Of a DNA stretch of 64,000 nucleotides, positions 47,442-64,000 are shown piece after piece. How positions within the stretch are numbered: the stretch's first letter is position 1; every line of letters begins with the position of its first letter. The translations under genes and the position numbers were made by a program. The notes beneath the pieces are model-generated. The model was given only the letters and a program-made list of their open reading frames with translations, ran no database searches and had not been told where the DNA came from. The DNA is from Eubacteriales bacterium (GTDB taxonomy: Bacteria; Bacillota; Clostridia; Oscillospirales; CAG-272), in NCBI GenBank assembly GCA_045656745.1, contig JAZORT010000023.1, positions 28,901-92,900 of the forward strand. The letters run 5' to 3'.

Positions 47442-47451
47442 GTCATTAATA

Positions 47452-47874: not shown

Positions 47875-47917
47875 TTTATGAGCGCCTCCGCCTTTGTATT
47901 TTGTTTGGTTTTAAAGA

Positions 47918-48016
47918 TTAGTTAGAAACTTCTGCAAAGCTGTATAATTTCACAGAAATAATATTAGCCAATAGGATAAAAACAAACGCGAGTATAATTG
48001 AGAGTGCTTTTTTCAT
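47918..48016 (-). pseudogene. Probable gene remnant encoding only a signal-peptide-like 32 aa (MKKALSIILAFVFILLANIISVKLYSFAEVSN)
   Basis: GGAG RBS and signal-like sequence followed by an early stop. Confidence 0.35.
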
Positions 48017-48078
48017 TAGCAAATTACTCCTTGAAAAATATTTGCAAAGCATTTTGATGTAATATGATGGTTGTTCCG

Positions 48079-48840: not shown

Positions 48841-49174
48841 ACTTATTATAGATTTCTTTAAATGGATCGTTGTTGTAACAAAAATTCATTAACGAAGGCA
48901 GAGCGAGTGTCGCTAGCGTTTATCCAGCGTATGGCAAGCACTCTATCAATAGTTTCCTTGTTTTTTGTTTCGGGAATGTTGCAGTGCAGAAATAGAAAGC
49001 CCGAGCTTTCTTAATTCCATTTTACCTCTTCGAAATAGGCTTTGTCAAGGAAATTTATGCCATTTTTGGAGCGGAATAAGAGAAAAACCGCGTGTTGCAC
49101 AAAAAACGAGGGGCGGATTGTTGAAAGTTGCTAAAAAAAACAGAGGCGCCTTATGAGTGCCTCTGTTGGGAAAG

Positions 49175-51577
49175 TTATTCCTTTTGTTCCTGCCAAAATT
49201 CGGTTATAACCTCGTTTAGCCTTTTGGGGTTATCAATAAATTTCACGCCCTGCCAGAGCTTTGGCAGGCTTTCTTTATATATCGGGTCGTCAAAGCGGTC
49301 GTCAATAAGGACGATAATTCCTCTGTCGTCCTCTCTGCGAATAACTCTTCCTGCCGCCTGAAAAACTCGGTTCATTCCGGGGTAAATATAGGCGTATTGC
49401 TTGCCTTCCTCGTATTTTTCCTGGTAGTATTCGGCAATAGCCTCTCTCTCATAGGAAAGCGACGGCATTCCGATACCAACGATAATCGCGCCGATAAGCG
49501 AGTCGCCCGCAAGGTCAATACCCTCGGCATAAATACCGCCCATAACGCAAAAACCGATAAGATATGACTTATCCTCCGCCTTAAAGCGGTCGAGAAATTC
49601 CGACTTTTCCGAGGGTGACATATTCTTTTTTTGCACAAGGATGCTGAGCTTTGGATACTTTGCCTCAAAGGCGCGGGCAAGAGCCTCGTTATACTCGAAA
49701 GATGGGGTAAAGACCATATAGTTGCCCCGCTTTGCCGAAACCGCCGCGGCAACAGTCTTAACGATTGCTAAAAGGGTGTCCTCTCTTTCGGAGTATCTGG
49801 TGCTTATCTTGTCCATAATGCTAACCGAGAGCTGCTCGGGCGCAAAGGGCGAGTTTACCTCTAGAACATCGTCACATCTCTCGCCGCCAAGGGTCTCGCG
49901 ATAGTAGCCGAGAGGGGAAAGGGTTGCGGAAAACAGCACCGCGCCCCGACCGAGAGAAAGCCGTTTTTTAATCTCACCGCCCGTATCAAGGCAGAAGAGC
50001 TTTGCTGTAATTTCACCGTCATTGTAAAAGACAAAAAGGCGGTAAGAGGAGTCAAATCTCGCTAAAGTGTCGGCAAATTTCTTTGTTTTGTAATAGAAAT
50101 CGCGCAGAATCTTTATCCTCTGTTCCTTTTCCTCGTCCTTTGCCGTAAGGTTTTGCTTTATCTCCTCGTCAGTAACCGAAACAAGCTCGTCAAAGAGGGT
50201 GTAGAGCCTTGTTGGAATATCCGAAAGACTAGCCGCACCGAGGGTAATCTCGTCCTTGGTTTTTCGAAGCTCGTCTTTAACGAAGGGGAAAAGGGTCTCT
50301 CTAAAGATAGAGGAAGCCGCCGCGGCAAGCTTTTTTACCGCAGAAAATGCCCCCAGTGTTTCGTTTGCCGAAAGCTCTAAAAGCGTGTCTGCCGAAATTT
50401 CTGCCGAGAACATCTCCCGCGCCCGCTCGCCAAGGTTGTGCGCCTCGTCAACAAGGATTGCAAAATCGCCCCCCGCCGTAAAGTAACGGCGAATATAAAC
50501 GATAGGGTCGAAAAGGTAGTTAAAATCGCAGATTATAACGTCGCAAAGCTCGGAATAAGCCAGCTCCAGCTCGTAGGGACAAACGGTAAATTCTCTTGCT
50601 GTTTTAACGACCTCACAGGCTTCAATAACGCAAATTCCCTTGTTGTAAAGGGCGAGAGTTGCCTCGGTCAGCCTCTTGCAGGGAGAGTTTTCGCATCCCC
50701 CGCGGCTTTCCTTGCAGCGGTGAGCGCCGATACAGCACTTGTCCTTGGCGGTAAGAATTATCGCCCGTATTTTCGCGCCGTTTTTTTCAAAAAGCTCGAG
50801 GCATTCCTTCGCCGCTTTTGCGGTGGTGGTTTTCGGGGTGAGGTAAAAGACCTTCTCGCACCTTCCCTCGCCCAGCGTTCTTAAAGCAGGGAAAAGAGCC
50901 GAAACCGTCTTTCCCGTACCCGTTGGAGCAGAGGCGTAAAGGGTGCCCCCGCGTGAAAGCGTGCGGTATGCCTGCCTGACAAAAATGCTCTGTCCCTCGC
51001 GGATTTCCTTGTAAGGGAATTTAAGGGCTTTAAAGGTAGGGAGCCTCTCGGTAACTCTGTCAATTTCGGGTCGGGCATAAACCGCCATAGCTCCAAGGCA
51101 TTTTTTGAAGAAAAACGCAAGCTTGTCTGCTGAAACAACCTCTAAACTTTCGGTAAAACGATCAGAGCCGTCACCGAAATAAACGAACCGCAAGGTTGCG
51201 CTCTTATACCCCATAGTCTCGCAGAGAATATGCCCGAGGATAAAGCCCTCGCCCCGCGCTATTGCCGCCTCGTCACGATTTGGCTTCGCCCTAAGGGAAG
51301 AAACCGTCTTGCCGAGAGTTATTCTGTCGCCGTCAACAGCACCCGCATCAGCGCAAATTTCAAAGTCAAAGCCCGAGGAAGAAAATTCAAAATAAAGGCT
51401 CTCGCCCTCGTGCTTTCCGATAATTTTCTCAAGCTTTCTTTTAGTAATATCTCTAAGGGCGGGGCTGTCCTCGTCCTTTGTCGAATAGGTAGAGAGCGAC
51501 CGCCTTGCAAGGGTAATAAGCTCTCTAAGCTCAACTCTTATTCTACCGCTTTCGGCATTATATTTCACCGCTCTCAC
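49175..51577 (-). CDS. ATP-dependent DNA helicase, DinG/XPD (Rad3) family with Fe-S cluster
   Basis: APTGTGKT Walker A, CPYE Fe-S ligand region, DFNYLFDP, VDEAHNL, FSATL, EGIDL, QAAGRVIR, LIDDRF. Confidence 0.92.
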   Translation of the reverse strand: MRAVKYNAESGRIRVELRELITLARRSLSTYSTKDEDSPALRDITKRKLEKIIGKHEGESLYFEFSSSGFDFEICADAGAVDGDRITLGKTVSSLRAKPNRDEAAIARGEGFILGHILCETMGYKSATLRFVYFGDGSDRFTESLEVVSADKLAFFFKKCLGAMAVYARPEIDRVTERLPTFKALKFPYKEIREGQSIFVRQAYRTLSRGGTLYASAPTGTGKTVSALFPALRTLGEGRCEKVFYLTPKTTTAKAAKECLELFEKNGAKIRAIILTAKDKCCIGAHRCKESRGGCENSPCKRLTEATLALYNKGICVIEACEVVKTAREFTVCPYELELAYSELCDVIICDFNYLFDPIVYIRRYFTAGGDFAILVDEAHNLGERAREMFSAEISADTLLELSANETLGAFSAVKKLAAAASSIFRETLFPFVKDELRKTKDEITLGAASLSDIPTRLYTLFDELVSVTDEEIKQNLTAKDEEKEQRIKILRDFYYKTKKFADTLARFDSSYRLFVFYNDGEITAKLFCLDTGGEIKKRLSLGRGAVLFSATLSPLGYYRETLGGERCDDVLEVNSPFAPEQLSVSIMDKISTRYSEREDTLLAIVKTVAAAVSAKRGNYMVFTPSFEYNEALARAFEAKYPKLSILVQKKNMSPSEKSEFLDRFKAEDKSYLIGFCVMGGIYAEGIDLAGDSLIGAIIVGIGMPSLSYEREAIAEYYQEKYEEGKQYAYIYPGMNRVFQAAGRVIRREDDRGIIVLIDDRFDDPIYKESLPKLWQGVKFIDNPKRLNEVITEFWQEQKE

Positions 51578-51599
51578 CTCCTAAATCTTTTCTAAAATG

Positions 51600-51628
51600 A
51601 TTTTACCATATAAAAAGGGCAAAGTCAA
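51600..51628 (-). promoter_or_regulatory. Sigma-A-like promoter of the helicase gene
   Basis: TTGACT-17 bp-TAAAAT with a TG extension on the minus strand. Confidence 0.55.
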
Positions 51629-51672
51629 TACAGACTCTGCCCAAAGCTTAAAATTCAATAGAATTTTAATAC

Positions 51673-52515
51673 TTAAATTTCCTCGTCCCTTTCTGCCTCC
51701 TCCGCAAAGGTTAAAAGCAGTCTTGCTTTGGTCTCTAACCACGCGGATTTTTTATCCTTAACAAAGGAATATCCCGCGCTGTAACCGCGAAAGCCGATAA
51801 TAGGCAGAGCCGAGAGCTTTATAATGCCGTCAATGATAACCGAGGGGGAAAGGTCGCCTCTTACGGTCAAAATCACCGAAACGGTGAATATCATACAAAC
51901 GCTTGAGGGAATAAGCCTTAAAAAAGCATACAAAAACTTCTTTTTTTCGGGATTTTCAAGCTCGCTTGACCCCGAGGACGAAGCCCCCGAAAGAAGCAGG
52001 GCGGGCGTTAGCTTTACCGCCTTCATCTTCCTTGCTTTAGAGAATATTTTCATCTCCCTGAGGGTGCGTTTTTCGCCTCTCTTAAAGCTCTCGTATTCCT
52101 CCTCGGTGTAGCCCGCCTCGGCAATAAATGTTGACCTGCGAAACTCTAACTCCTCAAGGGCGTATCTCTTGCAAAAGGCGCGGAGCTTTCGTATTCTGTT
52201 TATGCCGACTCTCGCCTTTGCGCTCTTGTATTTTTCGAGCGCTTCCTTATATTCCGGCGTACTCTCGCCAATCTTTTCGCCCGAGTCCTCAAGGGAAAAA
52301 TAGATGATGTAAGAGGAGCAGAGCATAGCCACAAGCATGGTGGTAAATGCCGCGCTTGTAAAGTCGGCAAGAGCAATATCCGCAAAGATAACAAGGGTGC
52401 AGACCGCAAGGGTGATAAGAGCTATTGCCTTGCCTGCGTTTTTTGCAAGAAAGGTGTAGCCGTTTTTCATAGACGAGGAGAGCGAGAGAAGCTCTCTGTC
52501 AAAGCCGTCCTCCAT
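51673..52515 (-). CDS. Hypothetical membrane protein (two TM pairs flanking a soluble domain)
   Basis: Hydrophobic pairs near both ends; start overlaps the upstream stop. Confidence 0.75.
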   Translation of the reverse strand: MEDGFDRELLSLSSSMKNGYTFLAKNAGKAIALITLAVCTLVIFADIALADFTSAAFTTMLVAMLCSSYIIYFSLEDSGEKIGESTPEYKEALEKYKSAKARVGINRIRKLRAFCKRYALEELEFRRSTFIAEAGYTEEEYESFKRGEKRTLREMKIFSKARKMKAVKLTPALLLSGASSSGSSELENPEKKKFLYAFLRLIPSSVCMIFTVSVILTVRGDLSPSVIIDGIIKLSALPIIGFRGYSAGYSFVKDKKSAWLETKARLLLTFAEEAERDEEI

Positions 52516-52874
52516 TACTTTTCACCCCTCTTCGCAATTTTAAAGCAAACGGCACCCAGCACGTTGCCGAGAAAGCCGAAAAAGGATATTACCGTCATCT
52601 GCTCCGCAATGCTCGAAAGGGTAAAGAAGATTGCAAAAAGTATGAGCCACACTGTGTAGGAGGCGGGTGAGGCAATTCTTTTCTTCACTATCTTGTAAAG
52701 GGGAATTGCCGAGATAAGAAGGAGCAAAAGCACTCCGCCGGAGAGCGCCTGAGCGCTCTCCTTCCATACAGGAAAATAGGATGCAGTACAAATAAGCGGA
52801 GGGGCAATACAAAGGGCTAAACCGAGAATTTGTAAAGCATACTTTGCAAAAACACTAGTTTTCTTATCATTCAT
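52515..52874 (-). CDS. Small four-TM membrane protein (holin-like size; function unassigned)
   Basis: About 119 aa, four hydrophobic segments, basic C-terminus. Confidence 0.7.
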   Translation of the reverse strand: MNDKKTSVFAKYALQILGLALCIAPPLICTASYFPVWKESAQALSGGVLLLLLISAIPLYKIVKKRIASPASYTVWLILFAIFFTLSSIAEQMTVISFFGFLGNVLGAVCFKIAKRGEK

Positions 52875-53598
52875 AGCTTTCAAGCTCTTTCCTCATCTCG
52901 TTGATTTTTGAACTCATGGCGTCCTTTTGATACTGAGGGAGCGAAGAGGATATGAAGATGTTGTAGAGCATATCCACCTGAGAATTCAGCAAAAGATTAA
53001 GCCTCTCCTTCTGCTTTTGATACTCCTCGGCAGAAATGAGCCTGCCCTCAAGCGACTCAACCGTCTTTCCCTGACTTTCAATAGCCAAACTAAGCTCTGT
53101 AAGTCTCTCGCCCAGCTTCTCGGAGTCAATTCTCCTTGCCTCAATCTCCTTGTCGGCTGACTCCTTCATTCTGCCAACCGTTCCGCTGATACCGCCCAAA
53201 ACACCCTTAACCGAGGGAATAAGCCCCCTCTTGTAAAAATAGCCTATCACAAGCGTTGCAAGAAGGCTGAGCGCTGAAAGAAGCTCGGAGGCGTGTGAAA
53301 ATAGCGCCTCGTAAATCATCGCAAAGCCGTTCTTTTCCACTTGCGTATCTGTTAATTCGTCCTTTCCGTTCGGGGTATTTGTGTCCTTTGACTCTTCGGC
53401 TTCGGCACCGGTTTTGTCAAGATCGGTCTCCTCGGCATTCGGCTCTGCGGTGTCGTTTTCTGCCGTTTTCGACTCTGTGACGAAGGTATCGTCGCCTTCT
53501 TCCTGGGGTCCCCACTCCTCGGCGTAAGCCACCGCCCCAAAGGAGCAAAGAATGGTAAAAATAAGGGTTATAAGTAAAATTTTAAAGCCTTTTTTCAT
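52867..53598 (-). CDS. Membrane protein with Sec-type signal, acidic region, TM segment and coiled coil
   Basis: MKKGFKILLITLIFTILCSFGAVAYA-EE signal, TM 'LLSALSLLATLVIGYFY', coiled-coil C-terminus. Confidence 0.75.
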   Translation of the reverse strand: MKKGFKILLITLIFTILCSFGAVAYAEEWGPQEEGDDTFVTESKTAENDTAEPNAEETDLDKTGAEAEESKDTNTPNGKDELTDTQVEKNGFAMIYEALFSHASELLSALSLLATLVIGYFYKRGLIPSVKGVLGGISGTVGRMKESADKEIEARRIDSEKLGERLTELSLAIESQGKTVESLEGRLISAEEYQKQKERLNLLLNSQVDMLYNIFISSSLPQYQKDAMSSKINEMRKELESYE

Positions 53599-53611
53599 AG
53601 ATTTTCCTTTC

Positions 53612-54007
53612 TTAAAAAATTTTAGTGTTATAAATTCGTGATTGCATTCCGTCGGCGCGGCTCTCGAGAATATTAAGCCTTTTTTCAAGCTCCTTTACAC
53701 TGTGCCAAAGCAGGGCGCACTCCTCTGCGCTCCTTGGAATAAGCGAAATCCCGCTATCCTCTTTTACAAAGCCCGAAAGCCTTGTTTCGCCCTCTGCGGT
53801 AAAGAGAATGGGGCGGTGCTCGCCCTTATCAAGCTGTGAAAGGTCTACCGTCGCAACTCCGTTAGCGAGCTTGTAAATTCTCGCTCCGATACGGATAAAA
53901 CCCTCAACAGAGCGGGGAAAAGCGAGATAAAGCACTTCCTTTTCGTCAAAGGAGAGGGCAGAAATTGCCGACTCCCTGCCGTAAAGCTGATATTTTATTC
54001 TGCTCAT
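53612..54007 (-). CDS. Hypothetical protein (beta-rich with C-terminal coiled coil)
   Basis: ATGA overlap with the upstream gene; start MSRIKYQ. Confidence 0.65.
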   Translation of the reverse strand: MSRIKYQLYGRESAISALSFDEKEVLYLAFPRSVEGFIRIGARIYKLANGVATVDLSQLDKGEHRPILFTAEGETRLSGFVKEDSGISLIPRSAEECALLWHSVKELEKRLNILESRADGMQSRIYNTKIF

Positions 54008-54363
54008 AGTCCGCACCTTTCCGAAAGCCTTGCAATAATAACGGGCAGGCTCTCGTCCCCGATTTTGATGTAAGAGGCAAAATATCCGTCTCTCAGGTCG
54101 CAAAAGAGGTCGTATAGGGTGTGCCCCTCTCCGAGACCGGTTGGTATTGATGCCGCAACCGACTCCTCGCCCTCTCGCTTTATATCGTCAATAAGGGCGT
54201 TTAGGACATCGACAATGTGCATCGGAAGTCGGTCGAATGCCGCCTTGATTTCCTCTGCGGAATAACCCTCGCCGCCATACACTCTGTCAGAGGCGGGGCG
54301 TGTGGGCAGAGAAGAAACTCTAAGGTGGTCGATTTCTTCTTTTGTAATTTTTGAACTTTGCAT
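54004..54363 (-). CDS. Phage tail fibre/needle N-terminal-like protein
   Basis: 'VSSLPTRP...SAEEIKAAFD' resembles N-termini of tail fibre proteins that follow the hub in Firmicute podoviruses (recalled, not searched). Confidence 0.55.
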   Translation of the reverse strand: MQSSKITKEEIDHLRVSSLPTRPASDRVYGGEGYSAEEIKAAFDRLPMHIVDVLNALIDDIKREGEESVAASIPTGLGEGHTLYDLFCDLRDGYFASYIKIGDESLPVIIARLSERCGL

Positions 54364-54389
54364 TTTTCTTCCTTTCTGTAAACAATTAT

Positions 54390-57020
54390 TTACTTATTCT
54401 TGATTTTTCCCTTGATTTTATAACGGTAGGAAAGGGAATGAATTCCTATCGGAGCGCGAAAATCCTCCGAGGATAAAATGTATTGCTTGTCTATCCAGCC
54501 TCGCTCGTATTCGCCTATTGCCACCGTTGAATAGCCGTGAGGGGCAAGGGATAGGCGTGAAAAATCGGGAGAGCTGAAGTCCAGAGCGCCGCTCTTTATT
54601 CGGCAAAGCTCCTTTTGCCCCCTTTTGTCGGTTTTCACCTTGACGCAAAGCTCCGCATCGGACATACACTTGAATTTTAAAACCGCAGAGGCTCTTACCG
54701 TGCTTTTTTCAAGGTAGGGAATACCGCAGCTGTCGGGCACTGTTGCCAAGAGATATTTCACTCTGTGGCGGTCAAAGGAATAGTAATAGGGGTGTATTGC
54801 ACCGCCCATAGAGCGTATATATTCCTCCTTGTCAATGCCTGTTCCGTTTTCAAGAGCAGGGGGCAGAGTTCCGCGCTTATCTGTGTTGAAAAGGCAGATG
54901 TGACCGCCCTCTGTGCCGAAGAACAAAAGCCCGTTAAGCGAGAAAATTTCGGTAGCGGGGTAAAAGCTTCCGCCCGCAAATTCCTCGGTTGGCTCTACGG
55001 CGTATTTTTCGCCGCCCTCAAGGGTGTAATACTCGAATGTACCCTCGCTGTTTTTCGCGCTGTAAACCGTCATCAGAGTTCTTTCTCCCTGCTTTGGGTG
55101 AAGAGCGTAGCCCTCCTTTGCCCTTGTGGAGTAAGCAAAGACACGCTCGTCATTTTCATAAGCTCCGATGCCATTAAGGTGATACCACTCGCAAAGATAG
55201 CCCTCACCGCTTTTGTATTTTGAGCGGGAGTCGGCAAGGAAAATCCTTGACCCTAAAGCAACCGCAAGGTATCCGCGCCAAAGGCAAAGCTTTGCCTCCT
55301 TTGTGTTTTCCGCAAGGAGCAGTGGCGCAATTTTCTCGGAAAGACGGCTTATTGTCACCTTGTCCGCGCTGTCGCAGTCTGCGGAGTAAATACCCGAGTT
55401 GCAGGCAAAAACCGCCTCGCCCTCAAAAACGCAGGAGTCCCTAGCCTCGCCCGAGGTGCTCTTTATAAGGTTTGCAGGGTAGCTTTTGTTTTCGCCCTTT
55501 GTCTCTCTTGTGTGGTAAAACATACTGTCGCCCGAGAAAACCAGAAGCCTTTCTCCAAGAGGGAGAAGCGAGCCTACGCCCTGACCGCCAGAGCCGTCTA
55601 TAAAGTAGTTATCTGTGCTGAAATAGGGCGGGAATGTGTCGGCGCTCTCAATATCCGCCGAATAAAACACCACACCCGGCAGATTTTCATTACCCGAAAG
55701 GAAAAGCCTTCCGTCAAAGCTGCAGGCAATACTGCACCCGAGAATAGCCTCCTCACCGCTTACCCTTTTTCCAAGCTCGGTAGAGAGAAATCCCTCGCCG
55801 CTCGGCGAAAAATGACCGTAAATTGTAATAGTCCTGCCGAGCACAGTATCTCTGTCGGGGCAGTCGATCTCAAGCTCTTGGGTCGAGTAGTTGAAGAAGT
55901 ATTCCATCGAATTTCCCTCGCAGGTAACCGTCATAATTTTGCGCACTCCCCCATACAAAGGAACGGTGATTTTCGCAGAGCTGTAATGTTGGTTTATCTT
56001 CAGCGTAATGTTGGTTAGCGTGGGCTTGTTTTCAACAGCCTCAAAGTCCTCTGAGGTGAGAGCATAGTTTATCTGTTGCAGGGAGGTGCAACCCGAAAGG
56101 GGGTTGTTGCCGAATTTTTTCAAGCCCTTGCCAATGTAGAGATGTTCGAGAGAGGAGCAGTTGCCGAAGGCTCTTATACCGATATATTCCACCGTATCCG
56201 ACAGCACAACACACCTTAAAGCGGTACAGCCCTCAAAGGCTCGGTTGCCTATTTTCTTCAGACTGTGGCTGGTGTATAAGTAAGAAATGCCGGTCTTGCC
56301 CTCAAAGGCGGAGTCTAAAATTTCAACAACCTTGTATTTTTCGCCACCGAGACTTGCGTAGGCGGGAATGTAAAGCTCGCCACTTAGATTTAACTCTATA
56401 CCGCTTACGGCGCAGAGCTTTTGCTCATAGTCGGTAACAATATAGGTAAGGGTGGGGGTGGCGTAAGAAAGGTCAATAGGCGACCTTACGGTAAACTGCT
56501 GATAAAACTCGCTTGTGAGAAGATTTCTGCCCTCGAACCTCTCGCCGTTTATGTGAGTTGTGGGAACATACGCCGACATACCGCCGTCCCCCGAGCGAAG
56601 AATGCTTCCGTCCTCGGTAACGCAAATAAACCTTTTGCCGTCAAGAATGAAAAGCCTGCCTCCAATGTGCGCACCGCAGCTGCGGGCGTTTTTTAACCCA
56701 TCCGCAATGCATACGGGAGAGGCCTCGGGGGAGCTTGCATCAATTCGGTAAAGCTTGTCTGCCGAGTGAATAATAAGATAGTCCCCTCCGTCGCAGCGGT
56801 GAGAGAAAATGCGGTTGATTTTTCCCCCAAGCCTTGCAATTTTTCGAAAACCCGGTATGCTTTCAAGGCAGCCTCCGCCCTCGTAATCAATATACATATT
56901 TTCAAGATATGCATAGCGCTTTTCGGCATCGGGAGAGTGGTCGGTAAGGTCAACACCGCGCAGGGAGCCGTAGTCCCTTGTGTATTCCGCGTTTGAATTT
57001 ATAATGTTTTTCTCTGCCAT
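54390..57020 (-). CDS. Podovirus-like tail hub/stabilisation protein with inserted BspA-type leucine-rich repeats
   Basis: Position after the adaptor, N-terminal 'LRGVD...ENMY...PGF', beta-propeller-like composition, internal 'IGNRAFEGCTAL...IGIRAFGNCSSL' repeats. Confidence 0.7.
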   Translation of the reverse strand: MAEKNIINSNAEYTRDYGSLRGVDLTDHSPDAEKRYAYLENMYIDYEGGGCLESIPGFRKIARLGGKINRIFSHRCDGGDYLIIHSADKLYRIDASSPEASPVCIADGLKNARSCGAHIGGRLFILDGKRFICVTEDGSILRSGDGGMSAYVPTTHINGERFEGRNLLTSEFYQQFTVRSPIDLSYATPTLTYIVTDYEQKLCAVSGIELNLSGELYIPAYASLGGEKYKVVEILDSAFEGKTGISYLYTSHSLKKIGNRAFEGCTALRCVVLSDTVEYIGIRAFGNCSSLEHLYIGKGLKKFGNNPLSGCTSLQQINYALTSEDFEAVENKPTLTNITLKINQHYSSAKITVPLYGGVRKIMTVTCEGNSMEYFFNYSTQELEIDCPDRDTVLGRTITIYGHFSPSGEGFLSTELGKRVSGEEAILGCSIACSFDGRLFLSGNENLPGVVFYSADIESADTFPPYFSTDNYFIDGSGGQGVGSLLPLGERLLVFSGDSMFYHTRETKGENKSYPANLIKSTSGEARDSCVFEGEAVFACNSGIYSADCDSADKVTISRLSEKIAPLLLAENTKEAKLCLWRGYLAVALGSRIFLADSRSKYKSGEGYLCEWYHLNGIGAYENDERVFAYSTRAKEGYALHPKQGERTLMTVYSAKNSEGTFEYYTLEGGEKYAVEPTEEFAGGSFYPATEIFSLNGLLFFGTEGGHICLFNTDKRGTLPPALENGTGIDKEEYIRSMGGAIHPYYYSFDRHRVKYLLATVPDSCGIPYLEKSTVRASAVLKFKCMSDAELCVKVKTDKRGQKELCRIKSGALDFSSPDFSRLSLAPHGYSTVAIGEYERGWIDKQYILSSEDFRAPIGIHSLSYRYKIKGKIKNK

Positions 57021-57022
57021 AT

Positions 57023-57844
57023 TTACGCCCACCCGTTAGTCCTTACCCGTTTTTGGTCTGCATTTTTTTGAGAGAGGGAAATCTCGCTTACCATACTCTC
57101 ATAGAGCTTCATATATTTTTCGGAAAGCTCGGGGTTGTCGTCACAGAGCATCAGCGCAGAGCAAAGGGGGCTGACAAGAGCCGAAAGACGGCAGGGAATA
57201 TCTATCTCATCCTCGTCGGAGCTTACCTGAAGCGGTCTTTTGCGGTAGGTCACCCTGATACACTCGGGGCAACCCTCGGGCAAAATCAGTCGAGCGCCCT
57301 CGGTGCGCCAGCCCTCAATTTCCGCGCCCCCCTCCTCACATACCGAGACAAAGGAGGAAAAATCGGGAGACCTTGACATATCAACAACCCATCCTCCGCA
57401 CTCGGGAATATCCTTCGGGTCATTCGAAAAGCTGTCGGCATAGCAGATAAATTCCACAAGGGTAAACCTGTAATCTCCCACAAGGCTTATCTCTCCGCCG
57501 TATTTTATAAAGTCGCGGAAAACAACCTCCTCCCCGTTAAAATCCTTTCTTGTGACCAAAGCGCCGTCCCGTATAATTACCGAGCCTCTGCCCGCAAGCT
57601 TCATGGAGTACGCCCTCCCCGCAAGGGGGAGGGTTTTAGTTTCGTATCCTTGGTGAGTAAGACCCTTATAGCGTGACAGTACGGGCAAAGTTTTTTTAAA
57701 AATCCTTTTCTCTGCGACAAGGCCGAGCCTTGAAAAAATCATGAAAAGGGCGCGCCTTGCCGAGCTTAAAAACAATCCCTCGTTTTCATCGGGAGAAATA
57801 AAGCACAGCGAGTAAACTTCGTTTTTTAAATCCCTTAATGTCAT
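57023..57844 (-). CDS. Head-to-tail adaptor-like protein
   Basis: MTLRDLKNEV N-terminus, 'YRKRP...DEIDIP' C-terminal motif, position directly after the capsid gene. Confidence 0.6.
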   Translation of the reverse strand: MTLRDLKNEVYSLCFISPDENEGLFLSSARRALFMIFSRLGLVAEKRIFKKTLPVLSRYKGLTHQGYETKTLPLAGRAYSMKLAGRGSVIIRDGALVTRKDFNGEEVVFRDFIKYGGEISLVGDYRFTLVEFICYADSFSNDPKDIPECGGWVVDMSRSPDFSSFVSVCEEGGAEIEGWRTEGARLILPEGCPECIRVTYRKRPLQVSSDEDEIDIPCRLSALVSPLCSALMLCDDNPELSEKYMKLYESMVSEISLSQKNADQKRVRTNGWA

Positions 57845-57862
57845 TTAACGGTCCTCTCTTTT

Positions 57863-58915
57863 TTAGAAGAGCTCGCTTGCGGTGCCGGGGAAGTCGGGGT
57901 TGTCTACCGCAAGAAGGATATGCTTGTAGCTACCGAAGCCAACGCCGAATCGGCATCTGCCGTTCCAAATGTAATTGCCGGTGTGGTTGTCAACCCAGTT
58001 GGTAACATTGAGGGGAACGCGGTTGAAGAACATATTACCGCAAAGGTTCTTGTTTGCCTCGCTGGACATTAGCATAAGCGCATCGGTGGCAGGAGCCCAG
58101 TTGGGAAGAATAACAATATTCCACTTGCCGTAGTTGAGATTAAGCTCATCCTTGCCGTTAAAGCCGGTAAGGCTTCCGCAAACCTTCTTTACAATGCTCT
58201 CGGCAACGGGTCTGTTACCGGGAAGAATAATGGTGTCTGCGGTGTAACCGAGAGAGTTGCCCTGCTCATCCTTCATATTTCTGAGGTGAATGGTGAGAGC
58301 CGCAAGAGACTCCTCAAATCTTTCTACGCTGGGAGTGCGGACGCCGCCGCTTGTGGTGTAGAAAATATCACCGTAGTAATAGTTAGACTGCTCGGCGGCA
58401 TCGTTGCGGTAGTAGTGAGTGCCCGAGAAGAGAGGTGCGCCGTCATAGGCGGAAAGGTCAAGCATTGCGCCTGCGAAAGTAGCACTGCCTATGGCGCCGT
58501 TGATAAGGGCGGTCTCGCAGATTTTGTTGATAGTCTTGTAGTAAGCGCGGACAAAGCTTTCTGCTCTGCGTCTTGTATCGCTTGCAATACCGTACTGCGC
58601 ATCCTCCATCATCTCTGCGGAGATAACAAACTCCTTGGTATACTGGATATGCTCAATAAACTTTTTGTAAATTTCGGAGACGGTGTCCTGAGCGGCTTCT
58701 GCGCCCTCCTCGGTAGCCTGGAAAACATCAAAGCCTTCCTCTCCTACTATGGTCTCGCCGAAGCGGTTGCTCTTTTCAATATTGAAGAGAGCTCTTGCAA
58801 CTCCTTTCTTTTTCGAGAGAAGATCGCTCTCGTGCTCGATTATCATCTTGATAGGAGTTTCAAGCTTGCCTATCGCTGCGTCGGTGTTGCCCTGGGATTT
58901 AGAATAAATTATCAT
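57863..58915 (-). CDS. Major capsid protein (HK97-fold, Mu gpT-like)
   Basis: 350 aa after the scaffold gene; 'EEGAEA', 'ISAEMMED', 'DGAPLFSGTH', 'FNRVPL', 'RFGVGF' motifs. Confidence 0.75.
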   Translation of the reverse strand: MIIYSKSQGNTDAAIGKLETPIKMIIEHESDLLSKKKGVARALFNIEKSNRFGETIVGEEGFDVFQATEEGAEAAQDTVSEIYKKFIEHIQYTKEFVISAEMMEDAQYGIASDTRRRAESFVRAYYKTINKICETALINGAIGSATFAGAMLDLSAYDGAPLFSGTHYYRNDAAEQSNYYYGDIFYTTSGGVRTPSVERFEESLAALTIHLRNMKDEQGNSLGYTADTIILPGNRPVAESIVKKVCGSLTGFNGKDELNLNYGKWNIVILPNWAPATDALMLMSSEANKNLCGNMFFNRVPLNVTNWVDNHTGNYIWNGRCRFGVGFGSYKHILLAVDNPDFPGTASELF

Positions 58916-58953
58916 TGTTTTTTTCCTTTCTTAATTAAAAAATATTTTTGTTT

Positions 58954-59382
58954 TTATCGGGTGACTCTTTTGTAGAGTCTTTCAATTTCGCTGTCGCTTG
59001 CGTCCTCAAAGAGTGCTCTTGCAATACTCCACTCTCTGCGTGTCATAGAGCTTTTCGGGGATCTTGAAACTGCGGGGACAGCTCCGCGAAGGTGGGAGCG
59101 GTTGTCCTGCGCCCTTTGCGAGGTGGCAAGATATGCCTCCTCGGGAGTCAGACCAAGGTCTCTCAAAGCCGAATATCTTATGGGATTAGGCAGACCGCTG
59201 ACGTCTGAAAGAGCGCAAAGCTCGGGGAATTTGCCTTTGAGAATCGCAAGGTCGTCCGAAAGAAGCTCGCTCACCTCGTCAATTTCCTCGTTATACTGCT
59301 CGTCGGGGCAGATTATCTGATCAGGCTGCGCCTCGGAAATCTCCTCCGCCTCTTTTTCGGGGGTAAGGTTTTCGTTTTCCAC
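58954..59382 (-). CDS. Putative capsid scaffolding protein
   Basis: Acidic N-terminus, 'RSHL...SDSEIERLY' C-terminus, located between portal and capsid. Confidence 0.6.
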   Translation of the reverse strand: MENENLTPEKEAEEISEAQPDQIICPDEQYNEEIDEVSELLSDDLAILKGKFPELCALSDVSGLPNPIRYSALRDLGLTPEEAYLATSQRAQDNRSHLRGAVPAVSRSPKSSMTRREWSIARALFEDASDSEIERLYKRVTR

Positions 59383-59514
59383 TTATCTTGCCTCCTTTGC
59401 TCTCAGGTCACCGCCCTTAATACATCTGATTTTAGGCTCGTTTTTAGGCTTATAAACCTTTATAGGTGCCATCGAAAAGGTTGCGTAGGGGGATTTTGTA
59501 ATTTTCTTTTTCAT
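59383..59514 (-). CDS. Small basic protein (43 aa) MKKKITKSPYATFSMAPIKVYKPKNEPKIRCIKGGDLRAKEAR
   Basis: Not in the ORF track. Fills the portal-scaffold gap; its stop abuts the scaffold GTG. Confidence 0.6.
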   Translation of the reverse strand: MKKKITKSPYATFSMAPIKVYKPKNEPKIRCIKGGDLRAKEAR

Positions 59515-59516
59515 TT

Positions 59517-61211
59517 TTACTCACTTTCTTTGTTTGAATTTTTGTTTTTGATAAGCTCCTTGAAATATTCGGCATTGTCCGAGGCGTAGGGGTAGTGCGC
59601 CTTTGCCTGAGCCTGCCAATATCTGAGGAGTGTTTCGGGGGAGTCTTTATCGCCGAGAGTGCCGGCCTGGAAGCTCTCAAGATTTCTTTGCCAAAGAGAC
59701 TCGCGCCGATATTCGCTCTCCGAGCTTTGGTCAACCGTAAAGATAAAGTCGGGGCAGTATCTGTATTCTCCGCGCTCGTTTTTCTCGATGAAATCCTTTC
59801 TTGAAAATTTCGAGCGGTGGACTCTGCCAAGGGCGTCCATATACCTTAAAGGTCTGTCCTCGTCGGCAAAGGCAAGATAATGCTCGAAAATCAGCGAGTA
59901 TATCTTTGAATAGCAAAGATTTTTAAGCCTCTTTTTCGATTCAAGACGACTGCTCGACTGGCTTATCTTCAGCTGCCTTGCATAGCCCGACTCGTTTTTG
60001 TTGTTATCAAGGCCCTGAAGCGCGTCAGAGATTCCGATAATTCTCTTTGCCTGGTCGTAAAGGCGGTCTGCCTCGGCAATATCCTGAGCAATATCGGGGG
60101 TGGTGTCTATCTTGCCGTAGCTGTCAGCGCTCTCCCCGGGCCGAAGCTTTATAACCTGGCCAAAGACAGAGTTTGTCACCGAAACGGTGGCGTCCTCAGG
60201 CACAACGGGAGTCACTCCCGAGCGCAAAAGCTTTGAGAGAATTCTCGATTCAACCTTGTTTATCGCCTGCTGCTGGGGTCTTATTCTGTCACAGTCGGAC
60301 GAGCCGTAAACCGACCCCTCCTCAAGGGTGTTTTTCCTTATAACGATAGGGAATTTTTTAGGCGAGTAGTAGGGCAGAATGATTTCTGTGCCTCCCTCCT
60401 CGGTGACACTCTCAATAAGAATGTTGCCCTCTGTATATCCCTCGTTGCAGGTACATTTTCCCTCTGTGGCGCCGCAAACGGGGCATAGCTTACCCTTTCG
60501 CATATAGTATGCGGGAGAGTCCTCAAGCAAAAGGTCTCCGGAAAAGAGCAGCTTTCCGATATTTCCGTCCTCGTCGCGGTAAAAGGCGGTGACAAGCCTT
60601 ACGGTGTCGTTTATGGAGAGGGAGCCGTCGTATTCGTATTCACATTCGGCAAGGCAAAGCCTCTCCTCGCCCACCCCGTATCGGCGCATAAGCTCGCCCT
60701 TGGTGGTTGAAAAGCGCAAAAAGCAGTATTCCATATCCTCAACCTCGGCAATTCCCGGCTGCGGCAGAAAGCTTTCGGGGGAAAGGCAGTGGAGTCTTAC
60801 GTCTCCGCCTCCCTCAATTTCGCTGTCCCATTCAACAAACCATACGCTGCCGCCCAAAATATAGGTGTAGCGCTCGTCGGAATCGTTCATAGCCTCGAAG
60901 GGCAGTCTGCTCCGCAGGGCAAGGCAAAGATGCTCGATAGCCTTTGCGCAGCCGTCGTGGGTCTCGCTGAAAGAAAACGGCTCGACTCTCGGCAGGGGAA
61001 TATCGGAAGAAATCTCGCTTTCCACTATTTCATAGGTAATGTTTCTTACGGTGGCGGCAGACTCGCTTGAGCCGTCTATTTCGGCAGAGCCGAGATATTG
61101 CCGCATTCGTCTGCTCATTTTTTCAAGCTCCTCGGCGCGGTATTCCTCCGCCGCAAGGTAAAGCTCCTTAAAAAGCTCAAGACGCGCCGTAGCGGTTAGT
61201 TTTGTATTCAT
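59517..61211 (-). CDS. Portal protein (P22-like)
   Basis: 564 aa directly after the terminase; 'RNITYEIVESEI', 'FPIVIRKN...YGSSD...QQQAIN', 'ESGYARQ' motifs. Confidence 0.8.
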   Translation of the reverse strand: MNTKLTATARLELFKELYLAAEEYRAEELEKMSRRMRQYLGSAEIDGSSESAATVRNITYEIVESEISSDIPLPRVEPFSFSETHDGCAKAIEHLCLALRSRLPFEAMNDSDERYTYILGGSVWFVEWDSEIEGGGDVRLHCLSPESFLPQPGIAEVEDMEYCFLRFSTTKGELMRRYGVGEERLCLAECEYEYDGSLSINDTVRLVTAFYRDEDGNIGKLLFSGDLLLEDSPAYYMRKGKLCPVCGATEGKCTCNEGYTEGNILIESVTEEGGTEIILPYYSPKKFPIVIRKNTLEEGSVYGSSDCDRIRPQQQAINKVESRILSKLLRSGVTPVVPEDATVSVTNSVFGQVIKLRPGESADSYGKIDTTPDIAQDIAEADRLYDQAKRIIGISDALQGLDNNKNESGYARQLKISQSSSRLESKKRLKNLCYSKIYSLIFEHYLAFADEDRPLRYMDALGRVHRSKFSRKDFIEKNERGEYRYCPDFIFTVDQSSESEYRRESLWQRNLESFQAGTLGDKDSPETLLRYWQAQAKAHYPYASDNAEYFKELIKNKNSNKESE

Positions 61212-61215
61212 AATT

Positions 61216-62574
61216 TCAGTTTGGTTCTCCGTATTTTTCTATTAGGTATTTTTTGCCCTCTGCTCCCGCCCGCAAATAATCCTCGCGCATATCCTGCGTC
61301 CAGCTCGTTTTTGCGCCGGGCAGGGAATAGGGCTTTGCCCGAAAGATAGAGTAGCCTCTGAGAGCATCGGGGGCGTGGGTTATTTCGTGAGGCTCGGTGG
61401 AGCAGTCGGTAGGGCGGTTTTTATCCACCTGCAGTGCGGGCAGACAGCGTATCAGCTCTCTTGCAGTAGAGAATATCTGTAAGGACGGCGCGCCCTCGCC
61501 GCCGCAGAGCATCTCCTTCAGAGCAAGCCAGCCGCATTCTCTGTCGTTTGAGGTTTTTGTAAAATTCAAGCCGTATTCCGCAAAGAGTGTAGCCTTTGTT
61601 TTGCCCGTTTCCTGACTGCGTGAAAAGAGGTCGGGAGGCGCCAGGGTAAGGTAAATATCCTCGCCCTTCGGGGTCCTTTCAAGTATAGCCCTTGCCGCCG
61701 CGCTTATGGGCAGGTCGGACTCGCAGTATTCTCTGTAAACAAAGGAGCGTCCGTCGGGTGAGAGAGCTATCCAAAGACAGGCAAGGCGGTCAAGCCCGTA
61801 ATCTATGGTGCGGAATTTTCTCCACGAAGGCGGTATCTCAAACGGCTCGATAATATGGATTTTTCGGTCAAATTCGCAGAAATACTGCCCCTCAAAAATC
61901 TCCCAGTCTCCGTAAAGGAGAGCCTGCCTTTCTCTTTTCGGCAGAGCTAAAAGCCTTTTTTTGTATCCCGGGTCCGAGGAGGTGAGAAAGCTGTTATCGT
62001 CAATGAGGGAGGGAATAAAAATTCTTGTAAGCCCGTCCTCACCCACAAACTCCTTTTCCGAGGCATAGGGGTCAACAAAGCGCCTCTTAACCCAGTTGTG
62101 ACCGACTCCGCCCGGATTTGTCGAGGATTTTACCTGCTTTGGAAAGCCGTTTGCGCCCCTCACTCGCGATATGAGGTATATATATTGGCTTTCGGTAAAG
62201 TGGGTAAGCTCGTCAAAGCGGATAACATCGTATTCGGCGCTCTGATACTGATAAACATCAAATTCTGCCGCACAGTAACCGAAATCGATAACCGAGCCGT
62301 TTTTGAATTTCCCGGTGTGGCTTGATGAATTCATCGAGAATATCTCCCTCGGAAAAAGACCAAGCGCCCCGCGGATAAGCGATTTTTCAAGCTCGGCATA
62401 GGTGCGCCTCAGCACAAGCTGCTTTGAGCCGGGGTAGCTTAAAGCGAAGATAAGCGAGTCAAGGAGCTGCCCGTGAGATTTTCCCCCGCCGGCGGCGCCG
62501 CCGAAGAGGACCTCAAAGCTCTTTGCGTCAATAAACTGCTTTTGCTTTTTGGTGGCAGTGTATTTAAGCTCCAT
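61216..62574 (-). CDS. Terminase large subunit
   Basis: Walker A GGAAGGGKS, Walker B IRFDEL, coupling motif STNPGG, 'LLYGDW', nuclease IDYG and HAPDALR, all intact. Confidence 0.93.
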   Translation of the reverse strand: MELKYTATKKQKQFIDAKSFEVLFGGAAGGGKSHGQLLDSLIFALSYPGSKQLVLRRTYAELEKSLIRGALGLFPREIFSMNSSSHTGKFKNGSVIDFGYCAAEFDVYQYQSAEYDVIRFDELTHFTESQYIYLISRVRGANGFPKQVKSSTNPGGVGHNWVKRRFVDPYASEKEFVGEDGLTRIFIPSLIDDNSFLTSSDPGYKKRLLALPKRERQALLYGDWEIFEGQYFCEFDRKIHIIEPFEIPPSWRKFRTIDYGLDRLACLWIALSPDGRSFVYREYCESDLPISAAARAILERTPKGEDIYLTLAPPDLFSRSQETGKTKATLFAEYGLNFTKTSNDRECGWLALKEMLCGGEGAPSLQIFSTARELIRCLPALQVDKNRPTDCSTEPHEITHAPDALRGYSIFRAKPYSLPGAKTSWTQDMREDYLRAGAEGKKYLIEKYGEPN

Positions 62575-62894
62575 TATATTACCTCAAGATTAAAGCGAAT
62601 TTCCTCTGCGCCTCCACCGCCCTCGCCCTCGCTATCGAGAAGGTATTTTACAAAGGATGGGTCAAAGCGCTTTACCAAGGCGCGGTCTATCAGCATATCT
62701 CGGCGGATTTCAAGGCACTCGGCATAAGCCTTCTCAAAAAGTCTTTTTTTCCTGAAGCTTAAAAGCTCCTCAAGGGTAAGTCCCTTTGTCCTTGCAAATT
62801 TTGAGAAGCTCGGCGCGCCCTGCTCATCATAGCCCGCAAAGAAGAGATACATCTCCTTTTCTATCCCTTGGTAATATCCGTTTTTCTTCTTCAT
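62574..62894 (-). CDS. Terminase small subunit-like protein
   Basis: 106 aa with an HTH-like segment 'PSFSKFARTKGLTLEEL'; stop overlaps the terL start. Confidence 0.65.
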   Translation of the reverse strand: MKKKNGYYQGIEKEMYLFFAGYDEQGAPSFSKFARTKGLTLEELLSFRKKRLFEKAYAECLEIRRDMLIDRALVKRFDPSFVKYLLDSEGEGGGGAEEIRFNLEVI

Positions 62895-62969
62895 CTTTTT
62901 CCTTTCCCGAGGATGAGTCCTCGATTTTTTTCTTTCCCAAGTCAGGGTACCTCTGCTCGGGACAATTAC

Positions 62970-62998
62970 ATTATACACCAAAAAGTTGCGTTTGTAAG
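62970..62998 (-). promoter_or_regulatory. Candidate sigma-A-like promoter of the phage-like operon
   Basis: CTTACA-17 bp-TATAAT on the minus strand, about 75 bp upstream of the small terminase start. Confidence 0.5.
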
Positions 62999-63113
62999 TA
63001 CACTCTTGGGTAGAAGAAGTTACCTAAAAAGTGACAAAAAGTGTACAAAATGCACAAAAAAAGAGCGCAAAACGAAAACGTTTCACGCTCTAGGTGCAAA
63101 ATGGTAAATTTTG

Positions 63114-64000
63114 CTAACGGATTATTCTGTTTATAACGGCCTCTTTTTTCGGTTCTGTTTTTGAGAACGAGTAGGCTGAAAGGAGTATGCTCTCTGCCTC
63201 ATCAAGCAGGCTTTCGTCGTTTGAATAAAGGGTTGCGAGGGTCTCTCCGCGCACTACCCTGTCTCCCCTCTTTTTGTTCAAAATTACAGCCGCAAGAGGG
63301 TCGATTACATCCTCCTTGGTTTTTCTGCCTGCGCCGAGGGTGAGGGAAGAGAGTCCGATTTTTTCGGCATCGGTCGCAAGGACAAAGCCGTCCTTTGGCG
63401 AGTTTACGCAGCGCTCATATTTTGCGGAGCCCACCGATGCGGGGTCGTTTGCCGCCTCGGCACTGCCGCCCTGAGCGGTCAGCCACTCAACGAATTTTTT
63501 GTATGCGCATCCTGAGTCGAGAGCCTCGGTAACTGCCAAAAGAGCCTCGCTATGAGCCATTCCCTTTGCAAGAGAGAGCATTTCGGCAGAAACCGCGAGA
63601 GCAACCTCTCTTAAATCGGCAGGCCCTCTGCCCAAAAGCACCTCGCGCGCCTCGATAACCTCCGAAAGATTGCCTACCGCAAGTCCGAGAGGTGTATCCA
63701 TATCGGTTATAAGGGCACAGACCCGTCTGCCGAGAGATTTGCCGATGTCAACCATATTTTTTGCAAGGACCCCCGCCTCTTCGGGAGTTTTCATAAATGC
63801 TCCGCTTCCGTATTTTACATCAAGAACGATGTTTTTTGTGCCCGAAGCCAGCTTTTTGCCCATTATAGAGGAGGTTATGAGCGGTATAGAGTCTACCGTT
63901 GCCGTAACGTCGCGCAGGGCGTAGAGCTTTTTGTCAGCAGGCGCAAGTCCCTCGCTCTGACCGATAACCGCAATTCCTATATCCTCTACCTGAGAGATAA
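63114..64000 (-). CDS. pdp: Pyrimidine-nucleoside/thymidine phosphorylase (5' part outside the window)
   Basis: 'ADKKLYALRDVTATVDSIPLITSSIMGKKLASG', 'LDVKYGSGAFM', 'LGAGRKTKED'. Confidence 0.93.
   Translation of the reverse strand, partial: ISQVEDIGIAVIGQSEGLAPADKKLYALRDVTATVDSIPLITSSIMGKKLASGTKNIVLDVKYGSGAFMKTPEEAGVLAKNMVDIGKSLGRRVCALITDMDTPLGLAVGNLSEVIEAREVLLGRGPADLREVALAVSAEMLSLAKGMAHSEALLAVTEALDSGCAYKKFVEWLTAQGGSAEAANDPASVGSAKYERCVNSPKDGFVLATDAEKIGLSSLTLGAGRKTKEDVIDPLAAVILNKKRGDRVVRGETLATLYSNDESLLDEAESILLSAYSFSKTEPKKEAVINRIIR

Follow-up and report, generated by a model that had tools for sequence, protein, structure and literature searches.

A podophage-derived head, tail and packaging operon maintained by uncultured gut Clostridia: a candidate gene transfer agent

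Introduction

The DNA analysed in this work is a stretch of 64,000 nt from contig JAZORT010000023.1, referred to below as the window. Its minus strand carries, at positions 51673-62998, a cluster of phage-like genes about 11.3 kb in length, which we consider to be the structural and packaging module of a podophage, captured once, kept by the host ever since and probably functioning as a gene transfer agent (GTA). The source genome is a 60%-complete assembly. It belongs to a genus of uncultured Clostridia that is represented solely by metagenome-assembled genomes, obtained from the guts of ruminants, other herbivores and humans. A prediction made from the letters of the window had described the cluster as a domesticated short-tailed particle system in Clostridia, for gene transfer or another DNA-packaging role. 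To the extent that genomes alone can decide, this interpretation was supported, and transfer of host DNA is the probable function. That a short-tailed Firmicute GTA would be novel is a weaker claim in view of FpGTA, the GTA of Faecalibacterium prausnitzii (Borodovich et al., Nat Commun 2026, PMC12946183).

Composition and boundaries of the cluster

The cluster consists of 13 intact genes, all on the minus strand and constituting one transcription unit. They are arranged in the order small terminase (TerS), large terminase (TerL), portal, 43-amino acid (aa) protein, scaffold, capsid, adaptor, nozzle, 119-aa protein, 131-aa protein and three membrane proteins. Adjacent genes either overlap at their starts and stops or are separated by at most 38 nt. 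The operon with this order and without broken frames, as well as the overlapping or nearly abutting starts and stops, had been described in the original prediction. The features, in window coordinates and with the basis of each assignment in parentheses, are as follows.

62970..62998, minus strand: promoter-like site CTTACA-17-TATAAT upstream of TerS (10 of 12 positions match)
62574..62894, minus strand: candidate TerS, 106 aa from ATG (position before TerL; PHROG 3064 'terminase', E 0.0097)
61216..62574, minus strand: TerL, 452 aa (Pfam Terminase_3, 7.6e-13; PHROG 979, 5e-45)
59517..61211, minus strand: portal, 564 aa, SU10/P22-type (SU10_portal, 32.1 bits with a cut-off of 30; PHROG 156, 4e-29)
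59383..59514, minus strand: 43-aa basic protein with a GGDLR-type motif in common with relatives (reading of the sequence)
58954..59382, minus strand: candidate scaffold, 142 aa, acidic N-terminus (location between portal and capsid)
57863..58915, minus strand: major capsid protein, 350 aa (Phage_capsid_4, PHROG 371, ESM Atlas)
57023..57844, minus strand: candidate head-to-tail adaptor, 273 aa, with an inserted beta-sandwich domain (model with pLDDT 87.7, Foldseek)
54390..57020, minus strand: tail nozzle (hub), 876 aa (model with pLDDT 85.6, Foldseek)
54004..54363, minus strand: 119-aa protein, conserved N-terminal tail-fibre anchor (comparison with relatives)
53612..54007, minus strand: 131-aa protein conserved in the subclade of the window (comparison with relatives; no family match)
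52867..53598, minus strand: membrane protein 1, 243 aa (alignment of 17)
52515..52883, minus strand: membrane protein 2, about 120 aa, four hydrophobic segments (alignment of 17; ratio of nonsynonymous to synonymous substitution rates, dN/dS, 0.09)
51673..52515, minus strand: membrane protein 3, 280 aa, two hydrophobic pairs flanking a charged loop of about 110 aa (alignment of 15)
51617..51642, minus strand: terminator-like hairpin at the end of the operon (10 pairs, T-run)

As had been read from the sequence, the cluster lies between pdp (PYNP_C, 2.5e-19) and the gene of a DinG-type helicase (Helicase_C_2, 1.3e-39; DEAD_2). A terminator-like hairpin 3' of pdp and the promoter-like site 5' of TerS mark one boundary; the other is marked by the second terminator-like hairpin, 3' of the last cluster gene, and by a promoter-like site 5' of the helicase gene. 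When the cluster proteins were compared with Pfam and PHROGs (12 of the 13 proteins each, leaving out the 43-aa open reading frame, ORF) and with NCBIfam (10 of the 13, leaving out TerL, portal and nozzle), no integrase, repressor, replication, tape-measure or lysin family was matched. Neither a direct repeat bracketing the cluster nor a tRNA gene near it was found. In the libraries searched, the predicted absence of phage life-cycle genes and of att-like repeats was thus confirmed.

An extended form of the promoter, TACTTACA-N(16-18)-TAnAAT, is repeated upstream of the cluster in relatives, and the 7-mer TACTTAC was found in 9 of 19 regions upstream of the cluster. The -35-like word TACTTACA is unusual and is conserved upstream of TerS (window 62960-63000; loci L016, L028, L029, L030, L062 and L064). 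In these regions it is followed by 16-18 nt, the TAnAAT element and a leader of approximately 70-100 nt. The word may mark a dedicated sigma factor, an activator or an antitermination leader. Rfam gave no match in window 51000-64000, which includes the leader upstream of TerS.

Occurrence in the genus and chromosomal context

A TerL match was found in 114 of the 120 other species representatives of the genus, in 112 of them with at least 59% identity. Two species (G108 and G123) had only a distant TerL (43-46% identity) and no capsid gene, whereas a third (G110), which lacked a TerL match, possessed the capsid gene and was counted as a carrier. Cluster-type TerL or capsid was therefore present in 113 of the 120 species, and among genomes at least 90% complete the cluster was found in 42 of 43. 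Reading frames were open in all matches but two. The cluster-type capsid was also encoded in all ten genomes of a second genus. Over the family as a whole its occurrence was sporadic (19 of 150 other genomes, 14 of 97 genera).

In 20 loci fetched from the genus the order of genes g01-g12 was preserved, and every one of these loci directly adjoined host genes on its flanks. The genes neighbouring the cluster differ between subclades. At the same depth, synteny is lost for host genes in general as well, as illustrated by the genes of PurL and Fhs, which are adjacent in six genomes and lie on different contigs in the window's genome (G000). No tyrosine or serine recombinase was found beside the primary cluster in any of the five genomes mapped. 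Contigs assembled from four DNA runs (three studies) cover the cluster and its flanks piecewise; no run contig spans the whole pdp-cluster-DinG region, and these contigs are too short for this to count as evidence.

One genome showed a different arrangement. In G014 (L014 and L214; G014:C14:106000-142540) the operon, on one strand, has a circularly permuted order that begins with scaffold, capsid, nozzle, fibre anchor and membrane proteins and ends with TerS, TerL and portal, all being full-length matches. This can be either a rearrangement that spared every gene or the trace of a past circular or tandem form.

A comparison of TerL with 50,697 phage records gave 1258 matches, all below 60% identity, and the best phage-record match (45.5%) was an unannotated faecal virome scaffold. 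The capsid protein had four matches of at most 27% identity. Three virome scaffolds matching the cluster are unannotated fragments and are uninformative with regard to life style. In IMG/VR the cluster capsid was represented by ten fragments only, which had been filed as viral by prediction pipelines.

Descent and selection

To compare the history of the cluster with that of its host, a tree of concatenated TerL, portal and capsid was set against a tree of RpoB (extracted by homology) for 16 shared species. The two trees had seven of 13 splits in common, a number reached by none of 5000 shuffles (mean 0.22, maximum 4), and the correlation of the distance matrices (Mantel r 0.59) was likewise reached by none of 5000; both trees were made by quick searches, and because of the non-independence of the species the shuffles overstate significance. 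The common splits include the main subclade, the group G000 + G003 + G007 and four sister pairs (G003-G007, G019-G021, G016-G024 and G020-G023).

PurL and Fhs, tried as host markers, were replaced by RpoB: in a tree of 35 taxa four genomes of other families were nested inside the genus. The PurL + Fhs tree agreed with the cluster tree in the shallow pairs, with 5 of 14 splits in common (0 of 5000 shuffles reached that) and a Mantel r of 0.49 without G023. Contig G023:C18 (L087, L113) carries PurL and Fhs genes that are far more divergent than RpoB and the cluster of this genome, both of which place G023 beside G020. This contig may be mis-binned or horizontally acquired.

Selection was estimated from the pair G019-G021, four further species pairs being saturated (dS above 1 or not computable). 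In this pair dS was 0.34-0.80 for 11 cluster genes, as compared with 0.49 and 0.73 for PurL and Fhs, and dN/dS was between 0.06 and 0.35 in all 11 comparable cluster genes. The lowest values were obtained for TerL, capsid, portal and the membrane protein with four helices. As judged from the genes compared, these results show that the cluster has been inherited vertically and kept under purifying selection. In these respects the cluster behaved as the original prediction had anticipated for a domesticated locus: it is present and syntenic in related genomes, its tree is congruent with that of the host, and dN/dS is well below 1.

Prophage relatives and what the cluster has lost

About ten genomes of the genus carry a second TerL on another contig. 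All seven second copies examined (G004, G053, G056, G057, G063, G097 and G127) proved to be of prophage type and to represent a sister lineage. Their loci (L205-L212) lie on contigs C44 and C26 of G004, C28 of G127, C36 of G097, C1 of G056, C6 of G057, C28 of G053 and C90 of G063. In each of the seven an ORF of 428-1202 aa follows the portal gene, and then comes a large ORF, which is 2442-3187 aa long in the five loci holding it whole and is cut by the contig end in G004 and G056. Beyond this giant ORF, where the contig reaches, there are genes for a scaffold of 267-290 aa, capsid, adaptor, nozzle and fibre proteins, followed by homologues of the membrane proteins. The giant protein of the G053 prophage contains the polyvalent-protein domains LPD38 and LPD3.

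The G004 prophage was the one annotated in detail for life-cycle genes. Upstream of its TerS it encodes an exonuclease, RecT, a primase, a D5-type primase-helicase and regulators, and a large serine recombinase is encoded about 13 kb upstream. Its early region also contains an IS605-type OrfB/TnpB gene (L205:1128-2243; OrfB_IS605 2e-30, Cas12f1-like TNB domain). The capsid of the prophage lineage was found in 59 viral contigs or loci of IMG/VR, many of them 35-46.6 kb in length.

The prophage proteins are 48-66% (TerL), 40-44% (portal) and 45-47% (capsid) identical to those of the window. In phylogenetic trees the clusters of the genus formed a single clade apart from the prophages (support 99 for TerL, 98 for capsid and 85 for portal), which points to one capture and not to repeated prophage decay. 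The clusters of the second genus were sister to this clade in the capsid and portal trees. The nearest homologues of the window's cluster are other clusters of the same kind, which is in favour of the original prediction; complete prophages do exist, but they fall outside the cluster clade.

Compared with the prophages, the cluster has neither the early region nor the giant protein. Its scaffold lacks the N-terminal 130-150 residues or so of the prophage scaffold, i.e. about half of the protein. The protein encoded after the portal, of 428-701 aa in the prophages, measures only about 235 aa in many clusters, and the window does not encode it at all.

Packaging and head proteins

The Walker A, Walker B, TNPGG and nuclease DYGLD motifs of TerL were invariant in all 22 cluster copies. 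For TerS a longer frame starting with TTG exists, but it begins upstream of the promoter-like site. The cluster TerS aligns with the product of the gene in TerS position of the related prophages, minus their basic N-terminal arm of about 35-40 aa; a profile search of solved structures (PDB) gave no match for it. Small ORFs resembling the 43-aa protein occupy the same position in relatives.

The scaffold candidate had no family match in Pfam, PHROGs or NCBIfam. It aligns with the C-terminal 110 aa or so of the 267-290-aa protein found at the same position in the related prophages. The capsid protein scored 26.2 bits with Phage_capsid_4, slightly below the cut-off of 27; the assignment is supported by PHROG 371 (6e-5) and by a score of 0.99 to capsid clusters in the ESM Atlas.

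Tail, fibre region and membrane proteins

The best four Foldseek matches of the adaptor model were tail-complex chains of the N4-type phages N4, B2, Moo19 and DEV (E 3-4e-5, TM 0.38-0.46), and an alignment profile of the protein matched the N4 '30 kDa protein' at E 0.1. For the nozzle model the best 27 matches were all podovirus nozzle proteins (E 8e-17 to 2e-8), among them T7 gp12, P22 gp10, Sf6 gp8 and the proteins of SU10 and HRP29. The original calls 'adaptor' and 'tail hub', made without structural models, agree with these folds. A BspA-type leucine-rich-repeat (LRR) domain is inserted into the nozzle at approximately residues 195-345 (LRR_5, 1e-16), and the profile of the nozzle matched LRR surface proteins in the PDB at 1e-69. 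Since portal, adaptor and nozzle were all recognised, the cluster appears to encode the complete axis of a short tail, the structural match of the adaptor being moderate.

The approximately 100 aa that are conserved in the 119-aa protein also open proteins of 464-1122 aa in seven relatives, and the protein is homologous to the N-terminus of the 396-aa protein in fibre position of the G004 prophage. Variable genes beside this anchor matched tail-fibre PHROG 6049 (8e-9) and YadA head repeats. No other part of the cluster varies as much across species, in length as well as in content, as the fibre region between g08 and g10. Such variability would fit particles that need to bind cells.

Membrane protein 1 has a signal-peptide-like N-terminus, an acidic variable linker, one hydrophobic helix, a coiled-coil and a conserved SSSLPQYQKD motif. 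The membrane proteins and the small proteins gave nothing above noise in Pfam, PHROGs, NCBIfam and the ESM Atlas. Homologues of all three membrane proteins close the late operon of the related phage, from which the cluster inherited its copies. Their genes follow those of the nozzle and fibre proteins, a position that we take to be like that of the ejection proteins of P22-type phages. The signal-peptide-like start of membrane protein 1 argues for a role in the membrane of the producer cell, i.e. in release.

Proposed origin and function

We propose that a single capture, by an ancestor of the genus and probably of the neighbouring genus too, brought in the structural and packaging part of a temperate podophage, and that the host then kept this module while integration, replication and regulation functions and the giant internal virion protein were lost. 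In some cells the operon would be transcribed from its own conserved promoter. Portal, shortened scaffold and capsid would form a head, probably of smaller size than in the 40-46-kb phage relatives, as the shortening of the scaffold, the loss of the internal protein and the analogy with FpGTA suggest. TerS without its basic N-terminal arm would, together with TerL, fill this head with headfuls of cellular DNA; it is the trimming of TerS that makes a relaxed packaging specificity plausible. Adaptor, nozzle with its LRR insert and short fibre proteins would complete a short tail. Particles would be released, bind related cells and deliver DNA, and the three membrane proteins would serve either the release from the producer or the entry of DNA into the recipient.

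The properties of a GTA that can be read from a genome are supported for this cluster. It comprises phage-derived head, tail and packaging genes and no genes for integration, replication or lysogeny, and it is conserved across the lineage by vertical inheritance under purifying selection. An adsorption apparatus, which may serve delivery, is encoded as well (nozzle with LRR insert, fibre anchor and, in relatives, variable fibre genes). With portal, adaptor and beta-propeller nozzle, it has the parts of a podovirus tail machine. It does not have what an intact temperate prophage has: beside the structural module there are no recombinase, attachment repeats or replication and regulatory genes, whereas the related prophages, which served as a positive control, carry recombinase, replication and regulatory genes. 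It differs also from phage satellites (phage-inducible chromosomal islands, PICIs, including capsid-forming ones) in lacking an integrase and a replication gene and in having its own adaptor and nozzle; moreover, its presence in 113 species, only about ten genomes showing a second, prophage-type TerL, speaks against a helper-dependent satellite.

A number of observations weigh against this interpretation. The cluster was not found in seven of the 120 species (G009, G022, G055, G100, G109, G108 and G123), and one of these genomes, G108, is 96% complete. Its chromosomal position varies: DinG follows it in 8 of 15 loci with a readable flank, and pdp precedes it only in G000 and G007. Of the 13 splits, six conflict with the RpoB tree, each at a node of weak support, and the PurL + Fhs tree, besides nesting foreign genomes in the genus, misplaced G023 and is unreliable at depth. 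The base composition, which had been said to look like that of the host genes, does so only loosely. With a GC content of 49.3%, as compared with 46.3% for the genome, the cluster is at the 98th percentile of 246 windows of equal length, and its tetranucleotide distance is at the 95.5th percentile of the genome. In TerS a helix-turn-helix-like core with the motif PSFxxFA is conserved, so that sequence-specific packaging may persist. No muralytic enzyme or recognisable holin was detected in the cluster with Pfam, PHROGs and NCBIfam, lysis genes elsewhere in the genome not having been searched for.

Alternative explanations

A domesticated particle could benefit its host otherwise than by gene transfer, as a PBSX-like particle that packages DNA yet kills neighbouring cells, or through lysis and the release of DNA. 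We regard this as unlikely, although the comparative evidence of domestication (distribution, dN/dS, congruence with RpoB) backs it equally, the strong variation of the fibre region g08-g10 between species is what would be expected if target cells were chosen by it, and the FpGTA authors keep the same possibility for their element (PMC12946183). The strong constraint on TerS, TerL and portal (dN/dS 0.06-0.14) and the invariant TerL motifs argue that it matters whether the head is filled with DNA, and a short-tailed particle without a contractile sheath does not favour killing. Hardly probable is a resident element of defence or interference against related phages, in which the truncated scaffold and TerS would divert or spoil phage assembly in a way comparable to satellites that redirect capsid size. 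The shortened proteins are indeed scaffold and TerS, genomes with the cluster also harbour related prophages (all seven second copies examined), and the lineage of these prophages is common in viral contig sets (59 loci, contigs up to 46.6 kb). An intracellular device would, however, need neither the full tail nor the fibre anchor, both under purifying selection, and what the cluster encodes is a capsid, a portal and a terminase of its own instead of modifiers of those of a helper.

It is very improbable that the cluster is a mobile element, i.e. an unusual small prophage or a satellite spreading horizontally, or else a functionless prophage remnant in decay. Fragments of it have been filed as viral (the ten IMG/VR contigs), its flanks vary between subclades, one genome has the operon circularly permuted, and its composition is slightly atypical. 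Yet no recombinase, replication gene, att repeat or tRNA was found with it, and general host synteny is broken between subclades as well. Also against these readings are the open frames in all matches but two, dN/dS of 0.06-0.35, occurrence in 113 of 120 species, a cluster tree matching RpoB and dS values equal to those of host genes. We prefer a podophage module captured once and kept as a probable GTA. The more specific claim, that it is a short-tailed GTA of an origin separate from FpGTA, fixed in two or more uncultured genera and over 120 species, with the parent phage (40-46 kb, with a giant polyvalent internal protein) still infecting the same hosts, is put forward tentatively, as a possibility to which we would give somewhat less than even weight. 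If this claim is true, domestication can be followed directly in its stages: the lysogeny and replication modules were lost, the internal proteins disappeared step by step, the scaffold was halved and TerS was trimmed. In that case the three conserved membrane proteins would represent a so far undescribed module for release or DNA entry.

Other observations in the family and in the window

The family also contains a distant class of compact phage-like clusters, the capsid of which is 25-31% identical to that of the window (L055, L057-L060 and L024, in G186, G234, G170, G257, G196 and G030). One of them, L059, has 10 ORFs in 10.6 kb, including an amidase-like gene (recognised by eye only), and lies beside aromatic amino-acid genes. 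These clusters may be further domesticated elements. The identification of the L059-type class with FpGTA was considered and dropped, since just two species represent the genus of L059 in the collection.

Downstream of the DinG-like gene, window 47450-49100 is an island of low GC content (33.8% as compared with 46.3% for the genome). It holds ORFs of 140 and 253 aa, neither of which matches Pfam, and looks like a separate, recent insertion. Bins at window 48171-48804 had no read-contig cover in three of the runs. Three very long ORFs are present on the plus strand of the window, at 10026-14138 (1370 aa), 31743-37364 (1873 aa) and 41547-45680 (1377 aa).

Comparison with known systems

To our knowledge, GTAs were for long known almost only from Alphaproteobacteria. 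The RcGTA-type GTAs of that class resemble the cluster of the window in being host-maintained sets of head, tail and packaging genes without replication genes, inherited vertically across a lineage and under purifying selection; they differ by their long non-contractile tails and unrelated origin. For these alphaproteobacterial systems the regulators, the lysis genes and a dependence on competence genes have been established. PBSX of Bacillus subtilis is, like the cluster, a phage-derived, chromosomally fixed particle system of a Firmicute, and it packages DNA. PBSX has a contractile tail, a larger cluster than that of the window and its own regulators and lysis genes.

With podoviruses of the T7, P22, SU10 and N4 types the cluster shares portal, adaptor and beta-propeller nozzle by fold, as well as the order portal-scaffold-capsid-adaptor-nozzle. 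Identity to the solved podovirus chains is 7-15%, the nozzle of the cluster has the BspA-type LRR insert, and, unlike those phages, the cluster is devoid of large internal core or ejection proteins. Much closer is the podophage lineage of the genus itself, which has homologous genes in the same order from TerS to the membrane proteins, including the C-terminal part of the scaffold. It differs from the cluster by its recombinase, exonuclease, RecT, primase, primase-helicase, regulators and giant polyvalent protein, by a scaffold of about twice the length and a longer TerS, and by its position outside the cluster clade.

In gut Clostridia, as far as we know, particle sequencing suggests packaging of host DNA on a large scale, and only the FpGTA locus has been tied to particles. 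The FpGTA report describes an operon of 10.5 kb with genes for TerS, TerL, portal, scaffold and capsid along with hypothetical genes, which is nearly ubiquitous in Faecalibacterium, and particles of 40 nm that look tail-less and contain about 8.5-9 kb of host DNA; particle, proteome and DNA-size data are given for FpGTA, and members of related gut families are stated to package host DNA commonly in a similar way (PMC12946183). A 2026 preprint presents candidate clusters from other gut Clostridia (10.64898/2026.07.08.737213). By the published description, FpGTA and the cluster of the window are alike in belonging to gut Clostridia, in having an operon of about 10-11 kb that is nearly ubiquitous in a genus and free of life-cycle genes, in the order TerS-TerL-portal-scaffold-capsid followed by genes of short-tail type, and in a TerS reported or seen to be without a DNA-binding part. 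FpGTA (capsid RCH50849.1, portal RCH50851.1) was set beside the cluster by description only. As described, it has a second operon of 5.5 kb for baseplate, fibre, holin and endolysin, whereas the cluster of the window has nozzle, fibre anchor and three membrane proteins in one operon, in which no lysin was seen.

With FpGTA a podovirus-like GTA is already in print, such systems having appeared in 2024-2026, and the cluster described here adds to them. It is a concrete genus-wide GTA candidate in abundant uncultured bacteria of the ruminant and human gut, and it supplies a locus and a set of genomes that metagenomic studies of particles can test. What makes it valuable is its wide occurrence among uncultured gut species, together with the fact that the lineage of parent phages is extant. 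Cluster and phage relatives in the same genomes offer a natural before-and-after view of a phage becoming an organ of its host, including changes that may shrink the head and loosen the specificity of packaging.

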